Counted from the first letter of the stretch, positions 500 through 32,031 are shown. The stretch: 64,000 nt of DNA from Picochlorum sp. SENEW3 (GCA_034226945.1 CP120459.1:372001-436000), one strand, 5' to 3'. Numbers and translations: made by a program. Notes: generated from the letters alone by a model not told the origin.

Positions 500-1152
500 T
501 CTGTCGGTAGTAACGTGTTGTAGGTTTGTTTGATCAGATATCTTGTCTCCACAGAGGACTTGTGATCAATAGAGCAATGAAACGCAAATTTCACTTGAAG
601 AACACTTGCAGTTTGTATGCGGGTCGTAGAAATTCAGATATTGAATTATAATGTACGCATCGTGAGGCAGATTCAGCCATTATCATCGTGATCTGATCCA
701 GTTTGATGGCCTGCACATCGACCTCCCTGTAGTTTTATGTTTGATCGGACACCTTGCCATATCGTAGTTTGACACGTGTTCATCCCCTATCAAATGAAAT
801 CTTGACGGGGTGCCCCCGATGGAAAAAGACCAACTACCTCTTCTCCCATCAAGAGATGGTGTTGAAGGATCAACTACATCATTAATGATGACAGAGCAGT
901 ATTGTTCTGTTAAAGACATAGGAGCACCAAAATTGCCAATATACGGCTGATTCATTGGAATCTCAGAGGTTACTTTTAAACTATTGCTGTAAAAAGTGAT
1001 ATTTGGATTGGGTTTGAGTCATGAATCATGATAGATCGTACCGATCGCTGAGGTGGTTGTGAAGCACTGCGTCAGTGTCACTCGCCACCGGCACCAATGT
1101 CGGATGTGAGAGCCATCACGTAAATGAGGACTTTTACAATTATCAGGCGTGC

Positions 1153-4128
1153 ATGATGGCAACAGCGGACGGGGAGATGCAAGCTTACGTACAGGACACA
1201 AGTCCCAAGCTTGGCCTCTACAGAAAGCCTTCGGGGAAACAGACACAGTATGAGAATTTAGTGGTCAAAGTCATTAAACCTGGATCACTAGGTGGATACC
1301 AAAATCATAATCGGGAAACTAAGGGACAGTGGCGAGGAGTTGCACGGTCCCCGCGACTGAAAAATCTACTTTTTGACACAGCAACAATGCTTGGTCACAT
1401 CTCCTTTGAGGCCACCCAGGCTGCACATTACCATGTATATAGATGCTTAGAAAATGGTATCGATCTTGGACCGATGGATTTCAATGGCTTTTGGTATAAA
1501 ATATTTGATGCAATAAAAGACCTTAGGTATGGTGGGGGTCTAAGCCATATTGACACGCCCCTCTACGATTCACTCAGGGAGTATGAAGAGAACGCCCCAT
1601 TGAGAAGAGGTGATCACCATCTTGATGGCGATGAACCTTTTTTGGGGATGTGGGATTTACCAGGGCACATGTATTGGAGACATGCTTGCCTCAAAGCTGC
1701 TGCAAAAACAAAGGAACAGAATTTGGGCATTATTCTTCAAACAAATGCATATCATAATTTGGGAAAGGTGATCAAGGTGCGTATTGCTGAATACTTTGGG
1801 GATAAATATGCTGATAATTTTCGTTCGCTCGTATCAGCTATTGCCAAATGCATCTGGGACGCTCAGCCTTTGGAGAAGGTCAAAGAGGGGTACAAGCGGC
1901 TGAGTGATCTCACGCAAGAGGAGATTAGAGAGATCGCTTGTCATGTCATAGATCCTATTCGGGAGAAATTTCCAGATGAGACAGGTCGAAAGGATAATTC
2001 GAAAATGATACAATTTGTGTATTTTGTTATGGGTGAGGTGATTGAATACAATAGAGTACGATCTCGTCAGCGGGGAGCACAGGTTGTCAAATTTGTAAAT
2101 GTGTGTGTTGGTCAGCAGCTGGCAAACGACATCGAGAGAGAAATGGGAGATTTGAGCAAGAAAAAGTTTGTCTTGTTCATGAAACATGCATTGGACATAT
2201 TTCGGCAGTGCTCAGGTTCAGATACATCCAGTGTTTGCAGAGATATTGGCATCAGATGTTCTCGACATGTATCAATGAATGGAAAATATCGCAGTCACAT
2301 TCTGCGACGTTTATCAGAGAGGATTTTGTATCAGACGGAAAATTCAATGCTCAAGGATGAGCTTGTGCTAGACCAACATCAAACAATGTGGATTGAGAGG
2401 ACTGCTGCTCAGCTGCAAGCTTCCTTCCAGCTGTCTGAATTTGAATCAAAGAAAGATCTCTTCGTAAAATATCTTAGAGAGTACATTGTACCAAAACTTC
2501 GGGAGTCGAATCTATGTGTGGCACAGAGGGATCACCAAAATGGAAATAATAAGATCCCATGGGGCAGAAAGATTGTGGTGCCCTCAATTCTCCCCTTGGC
2601 CAAAAAAAGAGCGTGTCATGTGAGCATCCCTAATGATGCAATCACATCATTGGCAAAGTTCTTGGCAGAAGAGGATAAGGATATCGAACAGAAGATCACA
2701 CCCATGCAGATCATACTCTCTGAGGCAAAAGAGAGAAAGATGGCAATTGAGAAAGAGATTGATGAACGCATGTTGCAAGAACAAACCGATGAGGAATACG
2801 AAATGGTGTGTCAAATAGAGAGAAACAAGATTGCCAGCGAGAAACAATTCAGAGCCATTCCTACAGGAAAAATACACAAGTACAAGATGAGGCCTGAGGA
2901 GACTGCCTTCAGCATGGACAGAAAGAAGAGGAAAGAAGAGTATTTGTCGAGCAGTGAAGAATTCAAGCAAGCTGAAAAGGAATGGGAACGTGCCAAACTG
3001 CTATATCAAGAGTGTTGCTGGATGGCTCTGTTCAATTTTAAAGTGAAACGACGCCAAGATGCACACGAGTGGCTTTTTGGTGGCGAGTTATCAACAGATG
3101 GTGTGGACGTGTCGATGCAGTACTACAGAATCAAAACAGATGTAGAAGTTGAAGCAGATCAAAAAGAGAAGAAAGAAAGCGGAAAGAAAGCCTTGCAAAG
3201 AAAGACCAAGAGAACAGGCAAAAAGCCTGCAGGCTCGGGCAGTGCTCTGACGGGAGACAAATCGGATGATATCTCCAGTCGAGCAGATTGGCGTAGAGCA
3301 AAAGATGTTTTGGAAGATGACCTCAGTAATCTATGTGTTTTTGATCCAGGTCCATCAGGACATGTGGGCATCAGAATGGATAGATCAAAATTTGACACCC
3401 TGAAGGAGAACAGAAAGCATGGTGACTACGACCCTTTTGAGACAATACACCTGAGCAACCATGAGATGAGAGCTCGGTCAGGGAAATTAAAGAGGATGAA
3501 GCTGAACGCAATATGGTCGGAAAGTAAACCCAAAATTCGGGTATGGAATGCTACAGCACCGAGTCGAAAGGTAGCAACAACAGCAGAAATCTTGGACTTT
3601 TGCAGAAACACAAATAGCCAGTTGCACGATGTCTATGGTTTTTATTCTCAAAACTGTTTCCGGCGGCAAAGGTTTTCCGTATACTCCAGGACTCAGCACA
3701 TGTTGGACATGATGGTTGAAAAGATCTGTGGCACATCAGAGAGGAAAGTGCAGGAGAGGACTGTAGTCGTATTTGGAAATGCAGCAATAAATTCAGGAGA
3801 GTGTCGAACAGGACGAATATGCTTGGGAGAGCTCAAACGTCTACTTCGACAACGCTGTTGCTATATTGAAGTTGACGAATTCAGGAGCAGTCAATATTGC
3901 TGTGCGTGTCAAACAAAGCTGGAACCTCCCCCAAGAGTTGGACTACACAAGCGCTGGAAAGTACGCCGTTGTATGAACAATGAATGTGAGCGTGCTTTTT
4001 GGCAGAGGGATGTAAATGCAGCCATCAATCTCTCAAAGTTCTTCCTCTGGGAAGTTAATGGAGAAGACAAGGACAAAGTTTTCAGAAGGCCTTGCAGGCT
4101 TGACGAAGATGACGTGCCTGATGTGTGA
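1153..4128 (+). CDS. Fanzor1-type (TnpB-like) putative RNA-guided endonuclease, about 990 aa
   Basis: ORF 1075..4128, first ATG at 1153. Motifs: FGGELSTDGVDVS, RuvC-I LCVFDPG, VVVFGNA, RuvC-II VDEFRSSQYC, zinc finger CCAC...CMNNEC, RuvC-III WQRDVNAAINL. Start is uncertain. Confidence 0.88.
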   Translation: MMATADGEMQAYVQDTSPKLGLYRKPSGKQTQYENLVVKVIKPGSLGGYQNHNRETKGQWRGVARSPRLKNLLFDTATMLGHISFEATQAAHYHVYRCLENGIDLGPMDFNGFWYKIFDAIKDLRYGGGLSHIDTPLYDSLREYEENAPLRRGDHHLDGDEPFLGMWDLPGHMYWRHACLKAAAKTKEQNLGIILQTNAYHNLGKVIKVRIAEYFGDKYADNFRSLVSAIAKCIWDAQPLEKVKEGYKRLSDLTQEEIREIACHVIDPIREKFPDETGRKDNSKMIQFVYFVMGEVIEYNRVRSRQRGAQVVKFVNVCVGQQLANDIEREMGDLSKKKFVLFMKHALDIFRQCSGSDTSSVCRDIGIRCSRHVSMNGKYRSHILRRLSERILYQTENSMLKDELVLDQHQTMWIERTAAQLQASFQLSEFESKKDLFVKYLREYIVPKLRESNLCVAQRDHQNGNNKIPWGRKIVVPSILPLAKKRACHVSIPNDAITSLAKFLAEEDKDIEQKITPMQIILSEAKERKMAIEKEIDERMLQEQTDEEYEMVCQIERNKIASEKQFRAIPTGKIHKYKMRPEETAFSMDRKKRKEEYLSSSEEFKQAEKEWERAKLLYQECCWMALFNFKVKRRQDAHEWLFGGELSTDGVDVSMQYYRIKTDVEVEADQKEKKESGKKALQRKTKRTGKKPAGSGSALTGDKSDDISSRADWRRAKDVLEDDLSNLCVFDPGPSGHVGIRMDRSKFDTLKENRKHGDYDPFETIHLSNHEMRARSGKLKRMKLNAIWSESKPKIRVWNATAPSRKVATTAEILDFCRNTNSQLHDVYGFYSQNCFRRQRFSVYSRTQHMLDMMVEKICGTSERKVQERTVVVFGNAAINSGECRTGRICLGELKRLLRQRCCYIEVDEFRSSQYCCACQTKLEPPPRVGLHKRWKVRRCMNNECERAFWQRDVNAAINLSKFFLWEVNGEDKDKVFRRPCRLDEDDVPDV

Positions 4129-4157
4129 TACAACCAAAGTCACATTGCTACATGCAT

Positions 4158-4183
4158 ATATATACAGGGTATATATACAGGGT
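4158..4183. repeat. 13-bp tandem duplication (ATATATACAGGGT)x2
   Basis: Two exact adjacent copies starting 30 nt after the Fanzor stop codon. Confidence 0.9.
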
Positions 4184-23731: not shown

Positions 23732-26700
23732 TTAGGCCTCAACCCCAGCTTTGGGCTTTTTAGCCTCCTCTGGGAGATTGTCCTCTGCTTGTTTCCTCTT
23801 CTTGCCAGTGGCGTCTGCATTGTCGTTTGCTTTTGCCTTTGCCTTTGGACCGCGCTTTTTACCTGCTGGTTTTTCGTCCTCTTCGTTCTCCTTCTCTATC
23901 AAGCGGATGAGTGTGTCGCATCGACGTGCTAATTCTTGTGGGGTTCTGCTCTTGATGAACCAATCGAATCTGAACCTCCATGAATTGCGAATCTCTGCTT
24001 TGAGCTCCTCCCATGCACCGTATCCAAGCTTGTGGACCATGCATATCAAAAATCTATCCTCCTCCTCATTGTACGCTTTGCCCTTGGATGGGCCGTACTG
24101 AATCTTCAAATCCTGCCAAGGGTTTTTGCACTTTGACAATTTCTTGGCAATGGCATCCATGATGGCTGCCTGCCACTGAATTCTTTGTTCTCCTTTTTCA
24201 ATATTTTTGAAAATTCTGTCAGCATCGTGCAGTTTGTGACCTCTTTCCTTGAATGCAGCTGCATATTTTCTGATCTCCTCCTCAGTCTTTCCATCAATCT
24301 CTTTGCAGATGGCATCAAGATTATCTCGGCCGTGGCGTTCGCACGAGCGAACAAATGCATTGAAGTCACGTCGACTCCAATTCGTAAATCCTTGGGATAA
24401 GAGCAGGTCTCGTTCTTTCAGTTCCTCGTCCGTGAGAGGTTTTGGATCATCGTCCTTTGGAGCAATAGCTTCATTGATGGCCTCCTCTGATGCTCCCTGT
24501 TGCCGCATGGTGTTTTCTCGCTGTTGGATACTGTATATGTGAGTATTATAGGCATCTTGCTTTTTGTAGAGTTCAGTAATCCGATCAATATCGAAAAATT
24601 GATGCTCTGGTAGATTTGGCATTTTGATGGCACGTGGACCTGAAGGCTTGGATCCCTCTTTTCTCGAATTGTTTTCTGCATAACTCACGATTCTCTTACG
24701 CTCTCTCTTTGGTGGATCAACCCAGTTTGCTCCCATCAATGCCTTGAGTTGCTCTACCTGGTCCTGATTCTCTTCTTCCTTCTCTTTCTTTGCCTCGAAA
24801 TCGTATGCAGACATGCCACCATCCATCGCAAACTTCATTGCATCATCGGTGAAGTTCTGCAATTTTTCGTTCAGTTCATTGGTCGTCCTCTCTCCTTTCT
24901 GGATAATAGCATCAATATCCTCCTCCGTGATTTTCGAAGGTGCAGAAGAGAAGACCATCTCTGCTCCATAGCGAACCATGCTGAGCAAATCGTCCTTGTT
25001 CACACTCTTGGTGTTCTCAACAAGGCGTCCTTGCTGAATGACAAGCGCATCCAATCGGAGCTTTTTGTATGCCTTTTCAATAACCTTTTCCTCGATCGCA
25101 TGCTCTGTGCACAATCTGAACACTTGGACTTCCTTTTTCTGACCAATACGATGTGCACGATCCATTGCTTGCAAATCCATCTGGGGATTCCAATCCGAGT
25201 CGTACAATATAACAATATCTGCAGTGTACAAATTAATACCCAAGCCTCCAGCTCTTGTTGAGAGAAGGAAGACAAACTTTTCAGAATCTGGGGCATTGTA
25301 TGCATCAATCTGTGACTCTCTGTCATCACCAGATGTGTTTCCATCAATCCTGCAGTACTTGTATTTTCTATACACGCAATAATCTTCCAAAATATCAATC
25401 ATACGTGTCATCTGTGAGAACACAAGAACTCTGGAACCACGTTCTTGAAGTTTGGGAAGCAATTTATCCAGCAGAACAAGTTTCCCTGCATTCTCCACCA
25501 AATGCTCTCCTGTAAAGTATGGTGGCCCTGGCTCTGCTCCTTGGAACAAATATGGATGGTTGCAACACTTTCTCAATTGCATGACAATATTGAGCAAACG
25601 TGATCTATCTGCTCCTCCAGTAATTGCATCCATATCCTTCTGCAGCAATGCTGCATAGTATTTCTTCTGCATATCAGACATACCAATCTTCAAAATCGTC
25701 TCCTTCTTTGGAGGTAAACTCTTTTCGACGTCACTCTTAAGTCGACGCAGCAGGAACGGCCTCAGCACCTTGTGCAGCTGCTGAACAACTTCCGCCTCTG
25801 CCTCTTTCCCATCCCCTCCAATTTGGAACCATTCATCAAACTTCTCTGCCGAGGAAAACACCTCTGGCAACAAAAAGTTGAGCAACGCCCACAATTCATG
25901 CAAGTTATTTTGCAAAGGAGTACCAGTGATCAAAAGTCGATAGTTTGTCTTGAGGGTTCTCACGACTCTGGAAAGGATTGAATTCTCATTCTTGATGCGA
26001 TGTGCCTCATCAATAATCACATATCTCCAGTGGAACTTTTTCCAATGGTTCTTCTCCTTGATCACCATTTCATATGATGTCACAACCACATCAAACTTCC
26101 CTGGACTGCACAGGTTCTCTTTTTGATATGCACGGTCCTCTGCATTTCCATGAAACTTCACAGCCTTGATCGATGGACACCACCTTCTGAACTCATTTAA
26201 CCAATTATGAAGAGTAGATTTGGGAACAATGACCATGTGAGGCCCCGTGATCCCTCTGTACTCTCTGAGATAGGCCAACAGGGAGATTGTTTGCAGTGTC
26301 TACATCAAACACTCTTTTATTGTAAAACACCTCTTGATGAGGACACGATTGCAGACAGAATATCACACACCTTTCCCAGACCCATCTCATCTGCCAAAAT
26401 ACCATTGATCCCATTATCATACAAATGAATCAGCCAATTCAATCCTTGCATCTGGTATTCACGAAGTTTTCCATGAGCAATAATAGATGGCTGTGCGAGC
26501 AGCCTATGCCCAGCCATTTCCCCTCCAGTCTCTTCATCCCTCAACAACTCCTCATCCTCTTGCTCTTCCGTCCGCATGCCTCCATGCCTGCCCTTCTTCT
26601 TCCCTTTGCCTTTCAGTGATTCTGCCGGAGCAAAATGCTGAAACACTTCTGCTTGCTGCAACAAAAAGTCCAGGCGCTTCTTTCCACGCGCAGCCTGCAT

Positions 26701-27241
26701 AGAAATCATAATAAGTCAGCGTGCATTCTTTACAATGCCTCGTCGCGCACCACCATTCACATACCTCTCCTGCCGCGGCATCAGAGTTCAACTTTGCATG
26801 CATTTGCTCAACCTGCTCCTTCCTCTGCTGCTCCAACAGCTTCAAACGAGCCTTCTCTTTCCGAGCCATCTCCTTTGCCTGCTTATTCTCCAGAACCTGC
26901 ACAATATTGAGTAGACTCGTCAGAAACCACCCAGCCCACGTTGGTATTGTGGACACACTGCCAGTAACGCATTCAAAAACCAGCCCATCTCGTGCGTCCT
27001 ATTCCATAACAACAATTAAGTAATCATTCAAATTCAATCATTTGATAAAACGTACGTCATCAGGAGCTTCTTCCTCCGTGTTGTATTCTTCGCCATCGTC
27101 AGGCTCTTCTTCTTCCTCTACGTCACTCGCTGACGCATCTGCTATCGCAAAATCATCATCTGGTGCACCATCCTTGTAGGAAACCTCGTTTTCCTCCCCA
27201 GTATCCCCTGCGGCCTTCACGTCCTTACCCTCTTCAGCCAT
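23732..27241 (-). CDS. ISWI: ISWI chromatin-remodelling ATPase, multi-exon
   Basis: [20 protein letters not shown] and [11 protein letters not shown] motifs with C-terminal HAND-SANT-SLIDE. Upstream exons are joined by GT-AG introns. Confidence 0.95.
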
Positions 27242-27435
27242 CGCGAGTGCTTTCTGATCTTTCTTGTACTGGTGTGAACACTTGAATATCTATCTGTTCA
27301 GCAGTCAATATTTCAAATAAATTTGTATACTGTATTCGATTGGATGTATCAACGCCGTAGTACGCCAATGAGACTCGGAGCGTTTGAACGTTGGGATTTT
27401 CTAATTGCTAATTTGGGAATTTTTACATTTGACTA

Positions 27436-27459
27436 CCGTAAAAATTTTAAATTTCGTTT
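27436..27459 (+). repeat. Left terminal inverted repeat
   Basis: Pairs with 29978-30001 at 21/24 positions; preceded by TA. Confidence 0.85.
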
Positions 27460-27567
27460 AATTAAGGAATGTAACATCTAGTCCATTTGACTCTGGTCAA
27501 TCCGAATCTTCTAGAACCTTGGATTGGTATGAAGTCGAGCCGCCATCGCCAACCGTGTCATTTCAAA

Positions 27568-29880
27568 ATGAAAAAAAAGAGAAAGGTGTCCGCCACACCA
27601 TCGAAAAAGGTGAAGAAAAAGAAGTTTACTCGATTGGATGTGGCTATAAAGAAGGATAAAGACCGTTTTTTCAATAAGACAGTCGTCAAGTGCACTTTGC
27701 AGCCTTTTTGTAAGTTCAAAGTGGTTCAACGCGAAATTGAAGAATGTGTATTCTACCTGAGTAGACTACAGATTCATGCGCATCATGTCATGCATCTATT
27801 GTTATTGAGGAACGGTGGGGCATTTAGGGACGATAAAGATGAATCTCTCTACGAACTCTACAACAAAATCTACAGACACCTTGCTAATCATTTGCAACAA
27901 AAGAAGGAGAGAAAGGATGTTGATACCAACTTGCGCGACTTGTGCAAGGAATATTGTGAGGAGACTGGGTTAAAAACAGATTGGCCTCAGGGTTGTGTCT
28001 CTGGTTGGAGGGGCAAAACAATGGAGCAGATGGCCCAGCAGTCGTCTGTTATGCATACCACGCATTTGGAAACCAATCTTAATGTATATGCATTACGGTA
28101 TCTGAGATATTTGCTATTTCGAGACGACACGGACTTTGACCAAATCAAAAATTTGTCAAAGAAGAAGTTTGGACAAGTATTTTCTGCAATCACACAGGCA
28201 TTCTGGGAGAGGACGAAAGTCAGTGATATTGTTGAACGTAGACCATCATTGACAGAATTTGCGTCTGATGTGTCAGTATGGGATGAAGCACAGAGAGCCT
28301 TGGATATCATTTGCTCGTTGGTGCCAAAGACGACAACTCTTTCTGAGAAATCCAGAATTTGCTTCTTCATTTTGGGTCACTTGGAGCCATTCGTGGAATC
28401 ACTGCAACAGAGGTTCAGAAACGGAGAGTTTGAAGGGAAGAAGAGTATACTTGGAAGACAGAAATGGACATTTTGTCTGTGTCCACAGATGGCCTGGAAA
28501 CCAAAGCATATCCATATCTCCAGCACAGCAGTGAAGACTATGGTTGAGCAACTCGCAAAGAAATATCCATATATCAGAAAGATAGTAGATGACTGTCCAG
28601 CACTGGATGACTATACAAATAAGTATTATTATTGGAAATCGATATTCAACATGAAGCGAGTATTGAAAAAAAAGCACATGAAGGACCAAAAGAAACTCAG
28701 ATTCGGATGCTCTATATGCACTGATGGCGTCTCTGTTTCTGCTGTTATAGACACTGTGAAGTCGGATCTGGAATGCACGATAATCCATCTGCAGGATGAT
28801 ATGAATTACGTCAAAGCAAAGTTGTGGGCCACCTACTGTGGGATGTTTGCAACCAACATTATTGCAAAAAAGATCAGATATGACCCTTTGCGTATTCTCC
28901 TTGGTGACATTTCCACCATACATTATGTTCTACTGAAGCCATTGTTGCATACATTAAAGTCACAAAAGGACGTTCTACAGAAACGAAAGGCTAAAAACAA
29001 AGACAAGACAGTCATCACAGAAAGGATCAAAAGGTTGGCTGGCATACGCAAAGATGACCATGGTATATATCACACAGATTGTATCATTGTCGGTTTGGAC
29101 CCAGGTAAAAAGTCAGCGGCCACGTGGGTTTTTCATGATTCGGAAAAGCAAAAGATCCATGCAAAGTGGAATGCAGAAAATGGTCGTCATACAGAGGTGG
29201 AAGACAGATATAAAAGTGATTCTCTGGGGTCAGGAGAATGGATCTTCTTATCTAGTCAGAAACAGTATACAGCCAAAATGAAGAAAAGGATGTCTGAATA
29301 CTGTCCTGCATGGGTGTCTGTGCCAACATGCAAGACAGTAGATCTTGAGAAAATTTTTGAGAGTTACAGATTCCAAGTTTCTATGTGGCCCCAACTGCAA
29401 CAAGCCTTCTTCGATGACAAAAAATGGTATCAGAAACAGAAGATGAGGAAATTTTGCAAGGAAAAGTCGGCCATGGAGGATGTGGTCGCTCGAATCTGTG
29501 GAACAAGAAACAAAGAGGCACAGAAGAGAGTCATCGTGGCGTATGGTGATGGTGATAATAACGGCACAATGAGGGGCACTGCTCCTATCATGAGCACAAA
29601 ACTGTTCAACAAGGTATCGGAATGTGCCACAGTTGTGTTGGTTAATGAGTTCAATACGTCCAAAATCTGTTCTTGCTGTCATGAGGCAATGGAACAGTAC
29701 AACAAACAATTCAGGATGAAACGTTGTCACAACAATGAATGCATTCGAAATGTTTGGGACCGTGATGTCAATGCCAGTATCAATATCAAAGACTTGTTTT
29801 TGGAAAAGTGTTACAATGGATCTCGAATCAAGGCTTTCAAGAGGACGAGGAAAAGGCAAAGGACATCAACACGGCAATGA
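27568..29880 (+). CDS. Fanzor1-type (TnpB-like) putative RNA-guided endonuclease, about 770 aa
   Basis: ORF 27487..29880 with ATG at 27529 or 27568. Motifs: FGCSICTDGVSVS, RuvC-I IVGLDPG, VIVAYGDG, RuvC-II VNEFNTSKIC, zinc finger CSCC...CHNNEC, RuvC-III WDRDVNASINI. Confidence 0.92.
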   Translation: MKKKRKVSATPSKKVKKKKFTRLDVAIKKDKDRFFNKTVVKCTLQPFCKFKVVQREIEECVFYLSRLQIHAHHVMHLLLLRNGGAFRDDKDESLYELYNKIYRHLANHLQQKKERKDVDTNLRDLCKEYCEETGLKTDWPQGCVSGWRGKTMEQMAQQSSVMHTTHLETNLNVYALRYLRYLLFRDDTDFDQIKNLSKKKFGQVFSAITQAFWERTKVSDIVERRPSLTEFASDVSVWDEAQRALDIICSLVPKTTTLSEKSRICFFILGHLEPFVESLQQRFRNGEFEGKKSILGRQKWTFCLCPQMAWKPKHIHISSTAVKTMVEQLAKKYPYIRKIVDDCPALDDYTNKYYYWKSIFNMKRVLKKKHMKDQKKLRFGCSICTDGVSVSAVIDTVKSDLECTIIHLQDDMNYVKAKLWATYCGMFATNIIAKKIRYDPLRILLGDISTIHYVLLKPLLHTLKSQKDVLQKRKAKNKDKTVITERIKRLAGIRKDDHGIYHTDCIIVGLDPGKKSAATWVFHDSEKQKIHAKWNAENGRHTEVEDRYKSDSLGSGEWIFLSSQKQYTAKMKKRMSEYCPAWVSVPTCKTVDLEKIFESYRFQVSMWPQLQQAFFDDKKWYQKQKMRKFCKEKSAMEDVVARICGTRNKEAQKRVIVAYGDGDNNGTMRGTAPIMSTKLFNKVSECATVVLVNEFNTSKICSCCHEAMEQYNKQFRMKRCHNNECIRNVWDRDVNASINIKDLFLEKCYNGSRIKAFKRTRKRQRTSTRQ

Positions 29881-30020
29881 ATTCGGCATGTAAGTCGGCT
29901 GCTTTTTGCAGACGCTATGCTTCAAGATACAGCAGAGAGAACGATGGAACTTCCAAGTTTGGAACATTCCGTCCGACAAACGAAATTAAAAAATTTTACT
30001 GTATCATGCTCCAAGCAGTG
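29880..30020 (+). ncRNA. Candidate Fanzor omegaRNA (scaffold up to the right TIR, guide from the flank)
   Basis: Nested pairings: GTCGG 29894-98/CCGAC 29973-77; CTGCT 29899-903/AGCAG 29931-35; hairpin GATGGAA-C-TTCCA-AGTT-TGGAA-CA-TTCCGTC 29943-73. The position matches known Fanzor/TnpB omegaRNAs. Boundaries are inferred. Confidence 0.6.
29978..30001 (-). repeat. Right terminal inverted repeat
   Basis: AAACGAAATTAAAAAATTTTACTG followed by TA. Confidence 0.85.
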
Positions 30021-32031
30021 TTTTGACATCCTCTGGGGGGTGGATGGAGGAAATCAGAGCACTTCTAGATGCGGCATGGTATGCATTTGTATATACATCA
30101 ACGATGCTCGAGGCAATTTTGTCTGCAATAGCGTTCCTGATGCCTTGCTCAATGATGGCTTGGTCTGCTCTGACAGTGCTGCATGACGGGTCTTCCAGCT
30201 TTGACCACAGTGCAATGGCACCTTGGGCAGCCACGTCCTCCGACAGAGGCTGGTTATCTAAAGCTTCATTGCTCTCTGTTTGGCCATCGACTGTAATATG
30301 CGCCTTTTCAGCGTCATTGGTGGAGCCCTGTGCGCGAAGCAATGTTCCCTCTAAAATCCTTGAAACGTCTGTTGCCACCATGCGGTCCATGGTCTCTTCA
30401 ATCTTGTCTTGCAATTTCTTAACAAGAGCGGACACGGATTCGTACGATTCAATCTGACGCCGGATATGACACAAGCAGTTGATAATGTACACATACTGCT
30501 TGTTTGGATTCATTGCAGATGTTGTGTCATCCAACCTGACTGAGGATTTTGGATTGAGCGCATCTGCTCCCGCAATCACTGAATTAATGATTGGATCCAT
30601 AATGTTGAATAACAAGGACTCGAATTCATCATCTTCTGTCACGGAGGCGTCGCCAGTATCGTCTTTATGTAGCAGTGAACTTTCATAAAACTTGATGATG
30701 CTGACGCCAATGGAGAGTCTGTCACTGTACAAGTCAGGCATGGAGAGGTCCTGAGGAGGGAGTGGGGGCTGCCTCACCAATCTATCTCCTCGCTGTTTCA
30801 TCTGATCTCGTAATAATTTCTCAGCGTTTGACTGGCAGGATCGCAGAGTATGTAAAAGCTTTCCATCTTCGCCCATGACTGGTTGTATGGTTCTCACATA
30901 AAATCCAAACAATGTGGTGAGCTGGAAATTCAACACGGGAGATGGAGCAGCCATGAGAATTTGATCCAGGCGTAATTTCAATGGCCTGCAAATACTATCA
31001 AAGATTGTATCCATGATTTCTTGCAGAGACAAGAGTTTTGATGAATCATCATCATCATCCGTCTTGTTCTTGTTGTCCTGTGCTTGCATGTATGCCTGTA
31101 AACTAGATGTTCGGGAGACAAGACCTCGAGAATCATAGCACCCTTGGAACAAATTGCCTACAAGCTCCATCTCACTCGCAATGGCTGCGTGCACCCACGC
31201 AAGCATATCATTGGCGTATCGCCAAGGATCCGCTGCATGCATTTCAATAGGTCGCGGGCCCTGAGACAGAGCCTGAATGAATTTTTCAAACACGGCTGTT
31301 CTGCGAGCAATGGCAATCTCCTCTGCGCAGTACGAATATAGAGGAGGGCGAGATCGCAACAATTTCATCGCCTTTGGGATCATATCGGCTATTTCTGGGG
31401 CATCAGGAGACTCGATTGATTGACACTCGGCCTGAATCCAGGAGCACACGTGTTTGAATGCTTCATCTTGCAACGCAGATAACTCATCCAGCAACGCCAA
31501 ACCAGCCTTATGGTGATACGATAATCCTAATGATCGACAATTACTATGGACAATCTGAACTTTCTTCAGCGCATCGATAAAGGCTTCATTGATCACCCCT
31601 TCCTGCAGTGTCTGTACATATTCTCGTGGAAGCTGATACTTTTCCTGAAATACATCCAACCACTCCTTTTTGGACTCTGTCAACGATATAGAATGTTCTA
31701 ATCTTTCAATATCGTTCAGTACGTTGGAGCATTGCAGCTCTCCCTCGGACAGAACAGAAGACATGGTGTCACACAAGGACCCCAGCCTTGCCAAGTCATT
31801 GCACACTGTATCAATCGATCCCATGATTGTTTCAGCATCTCCAACAAACCGCGTACTACTCTCAATCAGTCCTTTCTCGATTATGGAGCGAATGTTTCTG
31901 CGATTGTATGCGCTGTTATCGCTGTAAATAGTGGAAAGTGCTGAGAGATCTTTGGACACTTCTGGACTATCCGTCTTTTGCCCCAAAACTTTGCTCAACT
32001 TGCGCTGCAAACCAGGCGCTACTGAAGACAT
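30004..32031 (-). CDS. COG6: Conserved oligomeric Golgi complex subunit 6
   Basis: APGLQRKLSKVL, NRRNIRSIIE and GPRPIEMHAADPWRYANDMLAWVH motifs. Confidence 0.92.
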   Translation of the reverse strand: MSSVAPGLQRKLSKVLGQKTDSPEVSKDLSALSTIYSDNSAYNRRNIRSIIEKGLIESSTRFVGDAETIMGSIDTVCNDLARLGSLCDTMSSVLSEGELQCSNVLNDIERLEHSISLTESKKEWLDVFQEKYQLPREYVQTLQEGVINEAFIDALKKVQIVHSNCRSLGLSYHHKAGLALLDELSALQDEAFKHVCSWIQAECQSIESPDAPEIADMIPKAMKLLRSRPPLYSYCAEEIAIARRTAVFEKFIQALSQGPRPIEMHAADPWRYANDMLAWVHAAIASEMELVGNLFQGCYDSRGLVSRTSSLQAYMQAQDNKNKTDDDDDSSKLLSLQEIMDTIFDSICRPLKLRLDQILMAAPSPVLNFQLTTLFGFYVRTIQPVMGEDGKLLHTLRSCQSNAEKLLRDQMKQRGDRLVRQPPLPPQDLSMPDLYSDRLSIGVSIIKFYESSLLHKDDTGDASVTEDDEFESLLFNIMDPIINSVIAGADALNPKSSVRLDDTTSAMNPNKQYVYIINCLCHIRRQIESYESVSALVKKLQDKIEETMDRMVATDVSRILEGTLLRAQGSTNDAEKAHITVDGQTESNEALDNQPLSEDVAAQGAIALWSKLEDPSCSTVRADQAIIEQGIRNAIADKIASSIVDVYTNAYHAASRSALISSIHPPEDVKTLLGA

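Follow-up and report, generated by a model that had tools for sequence, protein, structure and literature searches.

In the passages of PMC10711439 that deal with TnpB, this nuclease of the IS200/IS605 elements (e.g., ISDra2) takes its guide from the right flank of its element and its target-adjacent motif (TAM) from the left flank. The same logic would apply to the Fanzor1 gene described here, which lies in a 64,000-nucleotide stretch of the green alga Picochlorum sp. SENEW3 (GCA_034226945.1 CP120459.1:372001-436000; the whole stretch is called the window, and positions are counted from its first letter). The gene is carried by a transposable element that adjoins the stop codon of COG6 directly, on its 3′ side. 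Comparison with the described systems provides a prediction of which RNA, target, and TAM this nuclease would use.

The best structural match to the protein of the window is SpuFz1 of Spizellomyces punctatus (9ceu and 8gkh, E 2e-10). According to the sections of PMC10432273 on its RNA and target, the omega RNA of SpuFz1 is encoded after the open reading frame (ORF), spans the inverted repeat, and consists of a 75-nt scaffold with a variable 3′ guide of 14–15 nt; its TAM, CATA, ends in TA with every base required, and cuts are made at positions 16–21. SpuFz1 differs from the window protein in sequence (12–13% identity) and length (about 600 versus 770–783 amino acids), and the host of the latter is a green alga. 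The right-end RNAs (reRNAs) of SfAV (Spodoptera frugiperda ascovirus) and lepidopteran Fanzor1 offer another comparison. In the Fanzor1 passages of PMC10711439, the scaffold is predicted to include the terminal inverted repeat (TIR) and the target-site duplication (TSD), with ~15 nt of RNA following the TSD; the TA of the window is predicted to be paired, with a conserved UACAG motif. While the SfAV and lepidopteran reRNAs were sequenced, the window RNA is predicted from two sequences. At the level of the element, the Fanzor1-only non-autonomous Mariner elements such as PUl-4, as described in part of PMC3627910 (Bao and Jurka 2013), contain a single Fanzor1 ORF, Mariner TIRs, and TA TSDs, with no transposase of their own, as appears to be the case here, although they come from another host and another sequence family.

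The transposase of IS200/IS605 elements excises without a scar and inserts beside a fixed motif, so that the insertion site defines the TAM in full. Excision re-creates the original donor site, which TnpB then cuts again, thereby restoring the element. Unlike these elements, the window element appears to be of a DDE-type cut-and-paste class that fixes only TA and duplicates it, and TA is therefore also found at the occupied junction. Since TA is always present there, occupied and empty sites must be told apart by one or more bases preceding TA. What the cited Fanzor papers demonstrate is in vitro cleavage and the editing of cells, not the service of the nuclease to its transposon.

By analogy with these systems, we favor, with confidence a little above even, a reading in which the conserved ~80–125 nt after the Fanzor1 stop codon, including the right TIR and TA, would serve as the scaffold of a guide RNA, and the next ~15 nt (30004–30018, at most to about 30020) would be the guide. 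The ribonucleoprotein would recognize the element-free COG6 allele through a TAM ending in TA with a base other than G before it and cut about 16–21 nt in, which, by analogy with SpuFz1, would fall within the last five to seven COG6 codons. The natural substrate would be the never-occupied homologue, which can share a nucleus with the occupied one in a diploid alga, rather than an excised site, and the cut would favor repair in which the occupied homologue serves as the template and the element is copied. The features on which this reading is built are as follows.

27428–27433, plus strand: left flank TTTGAC, candidate TAM-distal bases (from the sequence; unlike the flanks at other insertion sites)
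27434–27435, no strand: left TA copy (from the sequence and the inverted-repeat pair; similarity to other copies begins here in 3/3 other runs)
27436–27459, plus strand: left TIR, CCGTAAAA... (inverted-repeat pair I1)
27568–29880, plus strand: Fanzor1 coding sequence, 770 amino acids from the conserved Met14; an in-frame ATG upstream, at 27529, gives 783 amino acids (P0002)
29881–30003, plus strand: conserved 3′ non-coding block, putative omega RNA/reRNA scaffold (from folds and identity to the metagenomic relative L001), core ~29924–30003 including the right TIR and TA
29978–30001, plus strand: right TIR, ...TTTTACTG (inverted-repeat pair I1; the L001 contig end is similar, ...GCCTGTA)
30002–30003, no strand: right TA copy (from the sequence, contigs, and folds; predicted to be paired within the scaffold)
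30004–30020, plus strand: predicted guide/protospacer of about 15 nt (up to 17–20), antisense to the last codons and stop codon of COG6; placed by analogy with PMC10711439 and PMC10432273
30004–32052, minus strand: COG6 ORF, stop codon 30004–30006 (Pfam COG6_C 2e-96, COG6_N 7e-20)

The element is a non-autonomous cut-and-paste element of the Tc1/mariner type, with TIRs, a probable TA duplication, and one intact Fanzor1 gene. It is 2,566 bp in length (27436–30001), with TIRs of 24–26 nt and TA flanking each end. The two inverted-repeat arms, TA included (27434–27459 and 29978–30003), are 26 nt long and 88% complementary and represent the longest of 102 pairs found between 27000 and 30400. A single long ORF, 27487/27529–29880 on the plus strand, occupies the interior. 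The left flank with its TA reads TTTGACTA (27428–27435). At the occupied right junction ACTG is followed by TA (29998–30003), and this TA (30002–30003) is followed by TCATGCTCCAAGCAGTG (30004–30020) and then by TTTTG up to 30025. The first-pass annotation of this DNA had given the same TA, the same two flanks, and the same ACTGTA junction, all of which are borne out by the sequence. It had also placed the guide at the end of the COG6 coding sequence, and the 17-mer at 30004–30020 is indeed antisense to this end: it covers the COG6 stop codon, the four codons that precede it (L L G A), and two bases from a Thr codon. No second element or TIR copy was found within the window, and no transposase domain among the 20 ORFs scanned out of its 41 ORFs of at least 180 amino acids. 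Exact-match searches of viral and prokaryote genome contigs gave 0 matches for the right TIR and 0 for the COG6 end.

The boundaries agree with those seen in other copies. Logan contigs from four public runs were compared with positions 26800–30700; such contigs show joins but give no measure of where RNAs end or how abundant they are. Three of the runs (X9, X11, and X17) contain the element at 99% identity next to unrelated left flanks, and similarity is lost precisely at 27434 and at 30003/30004 in the contigs. An X11 contig (2,757 nt) spans 27434–30004 with TA on both sides in another genomic context and therefore represents a second complete insertion. TA is thus found on both sides in 2/2 complete insertions and at 4/4 left junctions. 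Between organisms, the copies differ by 13/2,426 bases (X9) and 15/2,571 bases (X11), or ~0.5–0.6%, whereas the flanks, including COG6 coding sequence, differ by 2.3–3.2%; this low divergence of the element suggests recent movement, spread, or transfer.

The protein shows the features of a Fanzor1. Pfam detects the Cas12f1-like TNB domain (OrfB zinc ribbon, PF07282) at 4e-8, with 33.7 bits against a cut-off of 26.3, and the N-terminus after Met14 is rich in lysine and resembles a nuclear localization signal. A search of a 5.8-billion-protein set yielded 13 proteins with E ≤0.001 among 8,000 scored candidates, at 40–99% identity. In an alignment of the query with 12 of these relatives (A1, 13 sequences; P0015 was omitted, having 557 amino acids and 51% coverage), the RuvC-I motif D524-P525-G526 is invariant, as are E707, which is the alternative RuvC-II glutamate six residues ahead of C714xxC717, and C733, C738, and R745-D746. 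The order T710-S711, C714, C717, C733, C738, R745-D746 is that of a C4 zinc finger followed by RD, with a second cysteine pair of the form Cx4C. In the relevant part of PMC10711439, DPG together with the alternative glutamate is a fingerprint of Fanzors, and the strict pattern DPGx(120-160)Ex6CxxCx(12-18)CxxCx(4-8)D served there to search NCBI nr for Fanzor-like TnpB. This strict pattern does not match here, as the gap from DPG to E is 180 and the second pair is Cx4C, but a relaxed form matches 12/14 of the proteins P0002–P0015, as does an expression of the Bao and Jurka form, D-X(125,275)-[TS][TS]-X-X-C4-X(5,50)-RD. In a Foldseek comparison with the PDB, ranks 1–7 are all Fanzor1 (SpuFz, PpFz, and GtFz), each with a probability of 1.00 and E values from 2e-10 to 3e-7, while the best Fanzor2 match is at rank 10 with E 0.02.

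The 90%-identity cluster of the closest relative contains proteins annotated as hypothetical in NCBI and eukprot, from Picochlorum sp. BPE23 (three proteins in two locus-tag series), Picochlorum sp. SENEW3, and P. renovo. A metagenome scan added two relatives, L001 and L002. L001 is 55% identical to the Fanzor1 at the amino acid level and retains its right end, with no detectable left TIR, and L002 ends before its right end. A scan of viral contigs gave 15 loci at 22–47% identity, mostly of the C-terminal part alone, which are too distant for use. Papers mentioning both Picochlorum and Fanzor include PMC12636532 and PMC10820777. No description of this Fanzor family was found in the former, the Fanzor passages of which treat Auxenochlorella, Chlamydomonas, and Chloropicon, and the BMC Biology paper on strain BPE23 (PMC9615354) does not mention transposons.

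Several observations are in line with a putative structured RNA at the 3′ end of the gene. The 123-nt 3′ block is 71% identical to that of L001 (80/112 aligned bases), compared to 39% at third codon positions (284/721), which argues that this non-coding block is constrained. The L001 contig ends in …AAAATAAAAAATTTGCCTGTA, a matching right end. For the two sequences together, RNAalifold predicts a stem of 14 pairs, 29882–29899 with 29919–29937, in which one pair has changed on both sides and four on one side with none broken; it encloses a 33-nt length difference, and a separate hairpin of five pairs is also predicted. In the modeled folds of the ~84–90-nt cores of both elements, a conserved internal UACAG would pair with the terminal CUGUA, which consists of the TIR tip and TA. 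The L001 core folds better than most of its shuffles (z −2.65; 3/200 equally good), and the window core with a 17-nt guide also does so (z −2.79; 1/200). Because of the published Fanzor1 RNA architecture and the conserved 3′ block with its UACAG/CUGUA stem, the predicted guide most likely starts at 30004 and would span about 15 nt. The right-flank guide after TA proposed by the first-pass annotation thus agrees with the relevant parts of PMC10711439 and PMC10432273 and with these folds, an agreement by analogy and sequence conservation. The guide 15-mer has four other matches in the window at three mismatches, as expected by chance (mean 3.4; 29/100 shuffles gave at least five matches). X17 contigs leave 29813–29943 uncovered, and a contig of X18, an RNA library, ends at 30004; contig breaks are expected at repeat borders, and this coverage was not taken as evidence of RNA ends.

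Because the protein determines its TAM, a TAM that mirrors insertion sites is expected to fit most sites of the family rather than one site alone. The four left junctions read …TTTGAC (window), …TATTTTA, …AAATAAA, and …GATACA before TA, and only TA is common to them. Since the preceding bases differ, GAC is the flank of the window site and not a family motif. The base immediately before TA is C in the window and A in the three other copies, with G at the occupied junction and variable bases further out. The TAM probably ends in the target-site TA, preceded by a base other than G. The first-pass annotation had held that the TAM must read at least one base 5′ of TA to avoid self-cleavage. Its logic is sound, as G at the occupied junction contrasts with C or A at 4/4 sites, but "must" is too strong. 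Known Fanzor TAMs include CATA of SpuFz1, ATN of PpFz1 (PMC11423790), and, in the part of PMC10530073 on DpFNuc, TA alone; discrimination by the base 5′ of TA could prevent self-cutting and is plausible by analogy but not compulsory.

The only natural empty allele observed comes from run X9. In one contig (2,823 nt, depth 235), position 27432 is followed by 30004, with 2,571 bases skipped, and the contig thus represents this locus in an element-free state; related organisms are polymorphic for the insertion. The COG6 stop codon is at the same place in this allele, which indicates that the insertion is 3′ of the native stop and leaves the coding sequence uninterrupted. The junction reads …TTTGA ATG TCATGC…, with unchanged length and with ATG in place of the CTA that the first-pass annotation would have expected. 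Each flank of the bridging contig shows 16 differences from the window, over 495 bases on one side and 697 on the other (3.2% and 2.3%); with such rates, the chance that any one trinucleotide carries at least two of them is about 0.003 and 0.002, respectively. Clustered changes occur nearby (three adjacent, 26980–26982), and in the flank from 30004 none lies before 30037 among 11 listed of that piece's 16 differences. The ATG could have arisen by two separate point changes or by one event affecting several bases, or it could reflect selection against sites that can be cut. Excision of Tc1/mariner elements leaves a footprint of added bases, so that the unchanged length makes an excision footprint unlikely there.

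This point also bears on the substrate. Cut-and-paste excision of a Tc1/mariner element itself makes a break and usually leaves a footprint in which the tip of the TIR is kept beside the right TA. The excised allele would then present the context of the occupied junction (CTGTA), and the suggestion of the first-pass annotation that element-free substrates arise by excision is for that reason doubtful. As to the setting, parts of PMC11092101 and PMC12636532 describe Picochlorum genomes as at least diploid, repeat-poor, and 46.3% G+C; the window itself is 45.9% G+C, with compact genes including those for a plastid-type PAP-fibrillin and glutamate synthase, and the host is probably a vegetatively diploid green alga of the Picochlorum type. 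An extension of the reading that we favor, in which the Fanzor homes in a drive-like manner by cutting the homologue that lacks the element and the X9 empty allele is a TAM-escape allele, appears quite improbable at present.

A number of results weigh against the favored reading. For the protein, the AlphaFold2 model built from A1 is mediocre, with a mean predicted local distance difference test score of 65.7; the Foldseek TM-scores are 0.28–0.47; and a sequence search of the PDB returned no Fanzor, with a chance lectin match (E 0.51) as its only result. For the RNA, conservation of structure comes from two sequences with one compensatory pair of 19, the 84-nt window core has a fold z of −1.87 with 12/200 shuffles equally good, and the 164-nt 3′ region folds no better than its shuffles (z 0.16; 113/200 as good). 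Rfam gave 0 matches for the putative guide-RNA region, and a TGTAA 9 nt past the Fanzor1 stop codon could end transcripts before the guide. For the TAM, four insertion sites in total were available, and the only natural empty allele lacks TA.

The most serious of the alternatives, although we consider it distinctly less probable than the favored reading, is that no guide is made from the right flank. The 3′ block would then reflect transposase binding (the TIR) and mRNA 3′-end formation (the stop codon and TGTAA), the "guide" would be mere flanking DNA, and the Fanzor would be inactive here or would use an RNA made differently. UGUAA serves as a poly(A) signal in green algae, and this explanation draws on the TGTAA after the Fanzor1 stop being kept in L001, on the TGTAA at the left end of the element, which is followed 14 nt on by a poly(A) tail in X17 and is thus a signal in use, and on the missing fold signal over 164 nt. 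It does not explain why the catalytic and zinc residues are invariant among relatives of 41–99% identity, why conservation continues well beyond TGTAA to the TIR, or why the UACAG/CUGUA stem is predicted in two diverged elements, and all Fanzors tested in the papers cited here carry guide RNAs. If a guide is made, its register could be different, with TA as part of the guide (start at 30002, TATCATGC...) and the bases before TA (TTTGAC here) as the TAM. In the section of PMC10711439 on IS200/IS605, the TnpB guide begins at the first flanking base, and the window alone does not separate the two registers. However, the same source assigns the Fanzor1 TSD to the scaffold by prediction, the folds of both elements pair UA with the conserved UACAG, and the bases before TA differ at all four sites and would provide no common TAM, which makes this register improbable.

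The two other alternatives concern the target site. A TAM of (GA)CTA, as the first-pass annotation read it from the one left flank of the window, has in its favor that GACTA is present at this site and that none of the four bases ahead of TA is shared with the occupied junction (ACTG versus TGAC). Its terminal TA stands, being found at 4/4 left junctions, but C, AC, or GAC precedes TA at 0/3 of the other insertion sites (…TTTTA, …ATAAA, and …ATACA), and the longer motif is the least probable of the explanations considered here. It is also rather improbable, if slightly less so, that the terminal TAs belong to the element without any TA duplication and that the true pre-insertion site is the …TTTGA ATG TCATGC… of the X9 allele. 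This one observed empty allele, which has no TA, supports the possibility. Replacement of ATG by C plus the element would be left unexplained, and TA-flanked TIR elements starting with CAGT or CCGT are a hallmark of Tc1/mariner in the relevant part of PMC3627910. Moreover, two point differences at this place in a flank diverged by 2.3–3.2% are unusual but possible, as the three-base cluster elsewhere in the flank illustrates.

For COG6 itself, the insertion has a probable consequence at the 3′ end of the transcript. The following feature, found by a motif scan, lies 8 nt beyond the TA.

27423–27427, minus strand: TGTAA, probable native COG6 poly(A) signal

The insertion probably separates the COG6 stop codon from this signal, which is now 2.57 kb away. 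The next minus-strand TGTAA after the insertion is at 29811–29815, within the Fanzor1 ORF, and from the sequence, the COG6 mRNA of the occupied allele would cross the whole putative guide-RNA region in antisense. In this analysis, the role of UGUAA as a poly(A) signal is backed only by the X17 contig, in which an unrelated upstream flank runs into the element and ends in 25 A, 14 nt after the left-end TGTAA at 27470. The left end of the element (27470–27488, plus strand) thus seems to polyadenylate transcripts reading in from outside. Downstream of COG6 lies a gene for a chromatin remodeler of the ISWI type (23732–27250, minus strand; SNF2, Helicase_C, HAND, and SLIDE), and the element sits in the ~195-bp spacer between the two genes, which contains the COG6 3′ end and presumably the promoter of the ISWI-type gene.

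Other observations were made on the contigs and on the window. An X9 contig (depth 210) joins 29858 to 29927, with 68 bases skipped, and the form without the skip is also present (depth 257). The sides of the join are short (29), and it may come from a variant copy in which another segment replaces the one around the Fanzor1 stop codon. The part shared by both forms, 29927–30003, is the best-conserved core of the putative RNA. An X17 contig covering COG6 begins at 30019, position 16 of the predicted protospacer, right after adaptor letters; adaptor is also present on X17 contig ends at 28494 and 29777, and the start at 30019 is probably a library artifact. The window also contains a second, larger Fanzor-like ORF (1075–4128, plus strand) of 1,017 amino acids, the C-terminal 142 residues of which are 29% identical to the Fanzor1 studied here (tblastn E 6e-17). 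This ORF has no Pfam match at 1e-5, and the ends of an element around it were not found; an inverted repeat, 1429–1446 with 4154–4171, was considered as such ends and judged to be due to chance, as it lies inside the ORF and is TA-rich.

The prediction of a guide is in itself nothing new, as a flank exists for every Fanzor copy and a predicted guide in COG6 is an ordinary consequence of the biology of the element. Rather, the value of the locus is that the occupied and the empty state both occur naturally, in a host that is diploid and tractable. It provides a clean natural test case, with an intact single Fanzor1 in a TA-duplicating element and a protospacer within the last codons of a conserved gene, in a genus reported to be diploid, compact, and transformable. 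The locus also makes concrete the self-targeting problem faced by carriers that make TSDs. If the Fanzor does act as a homing nuclease with the X9 allele as an escape from it, the activity of a Fanzor, and resistance to it, would for the first time have been seen to leave a trace in nature, in the form of the ATG allele.

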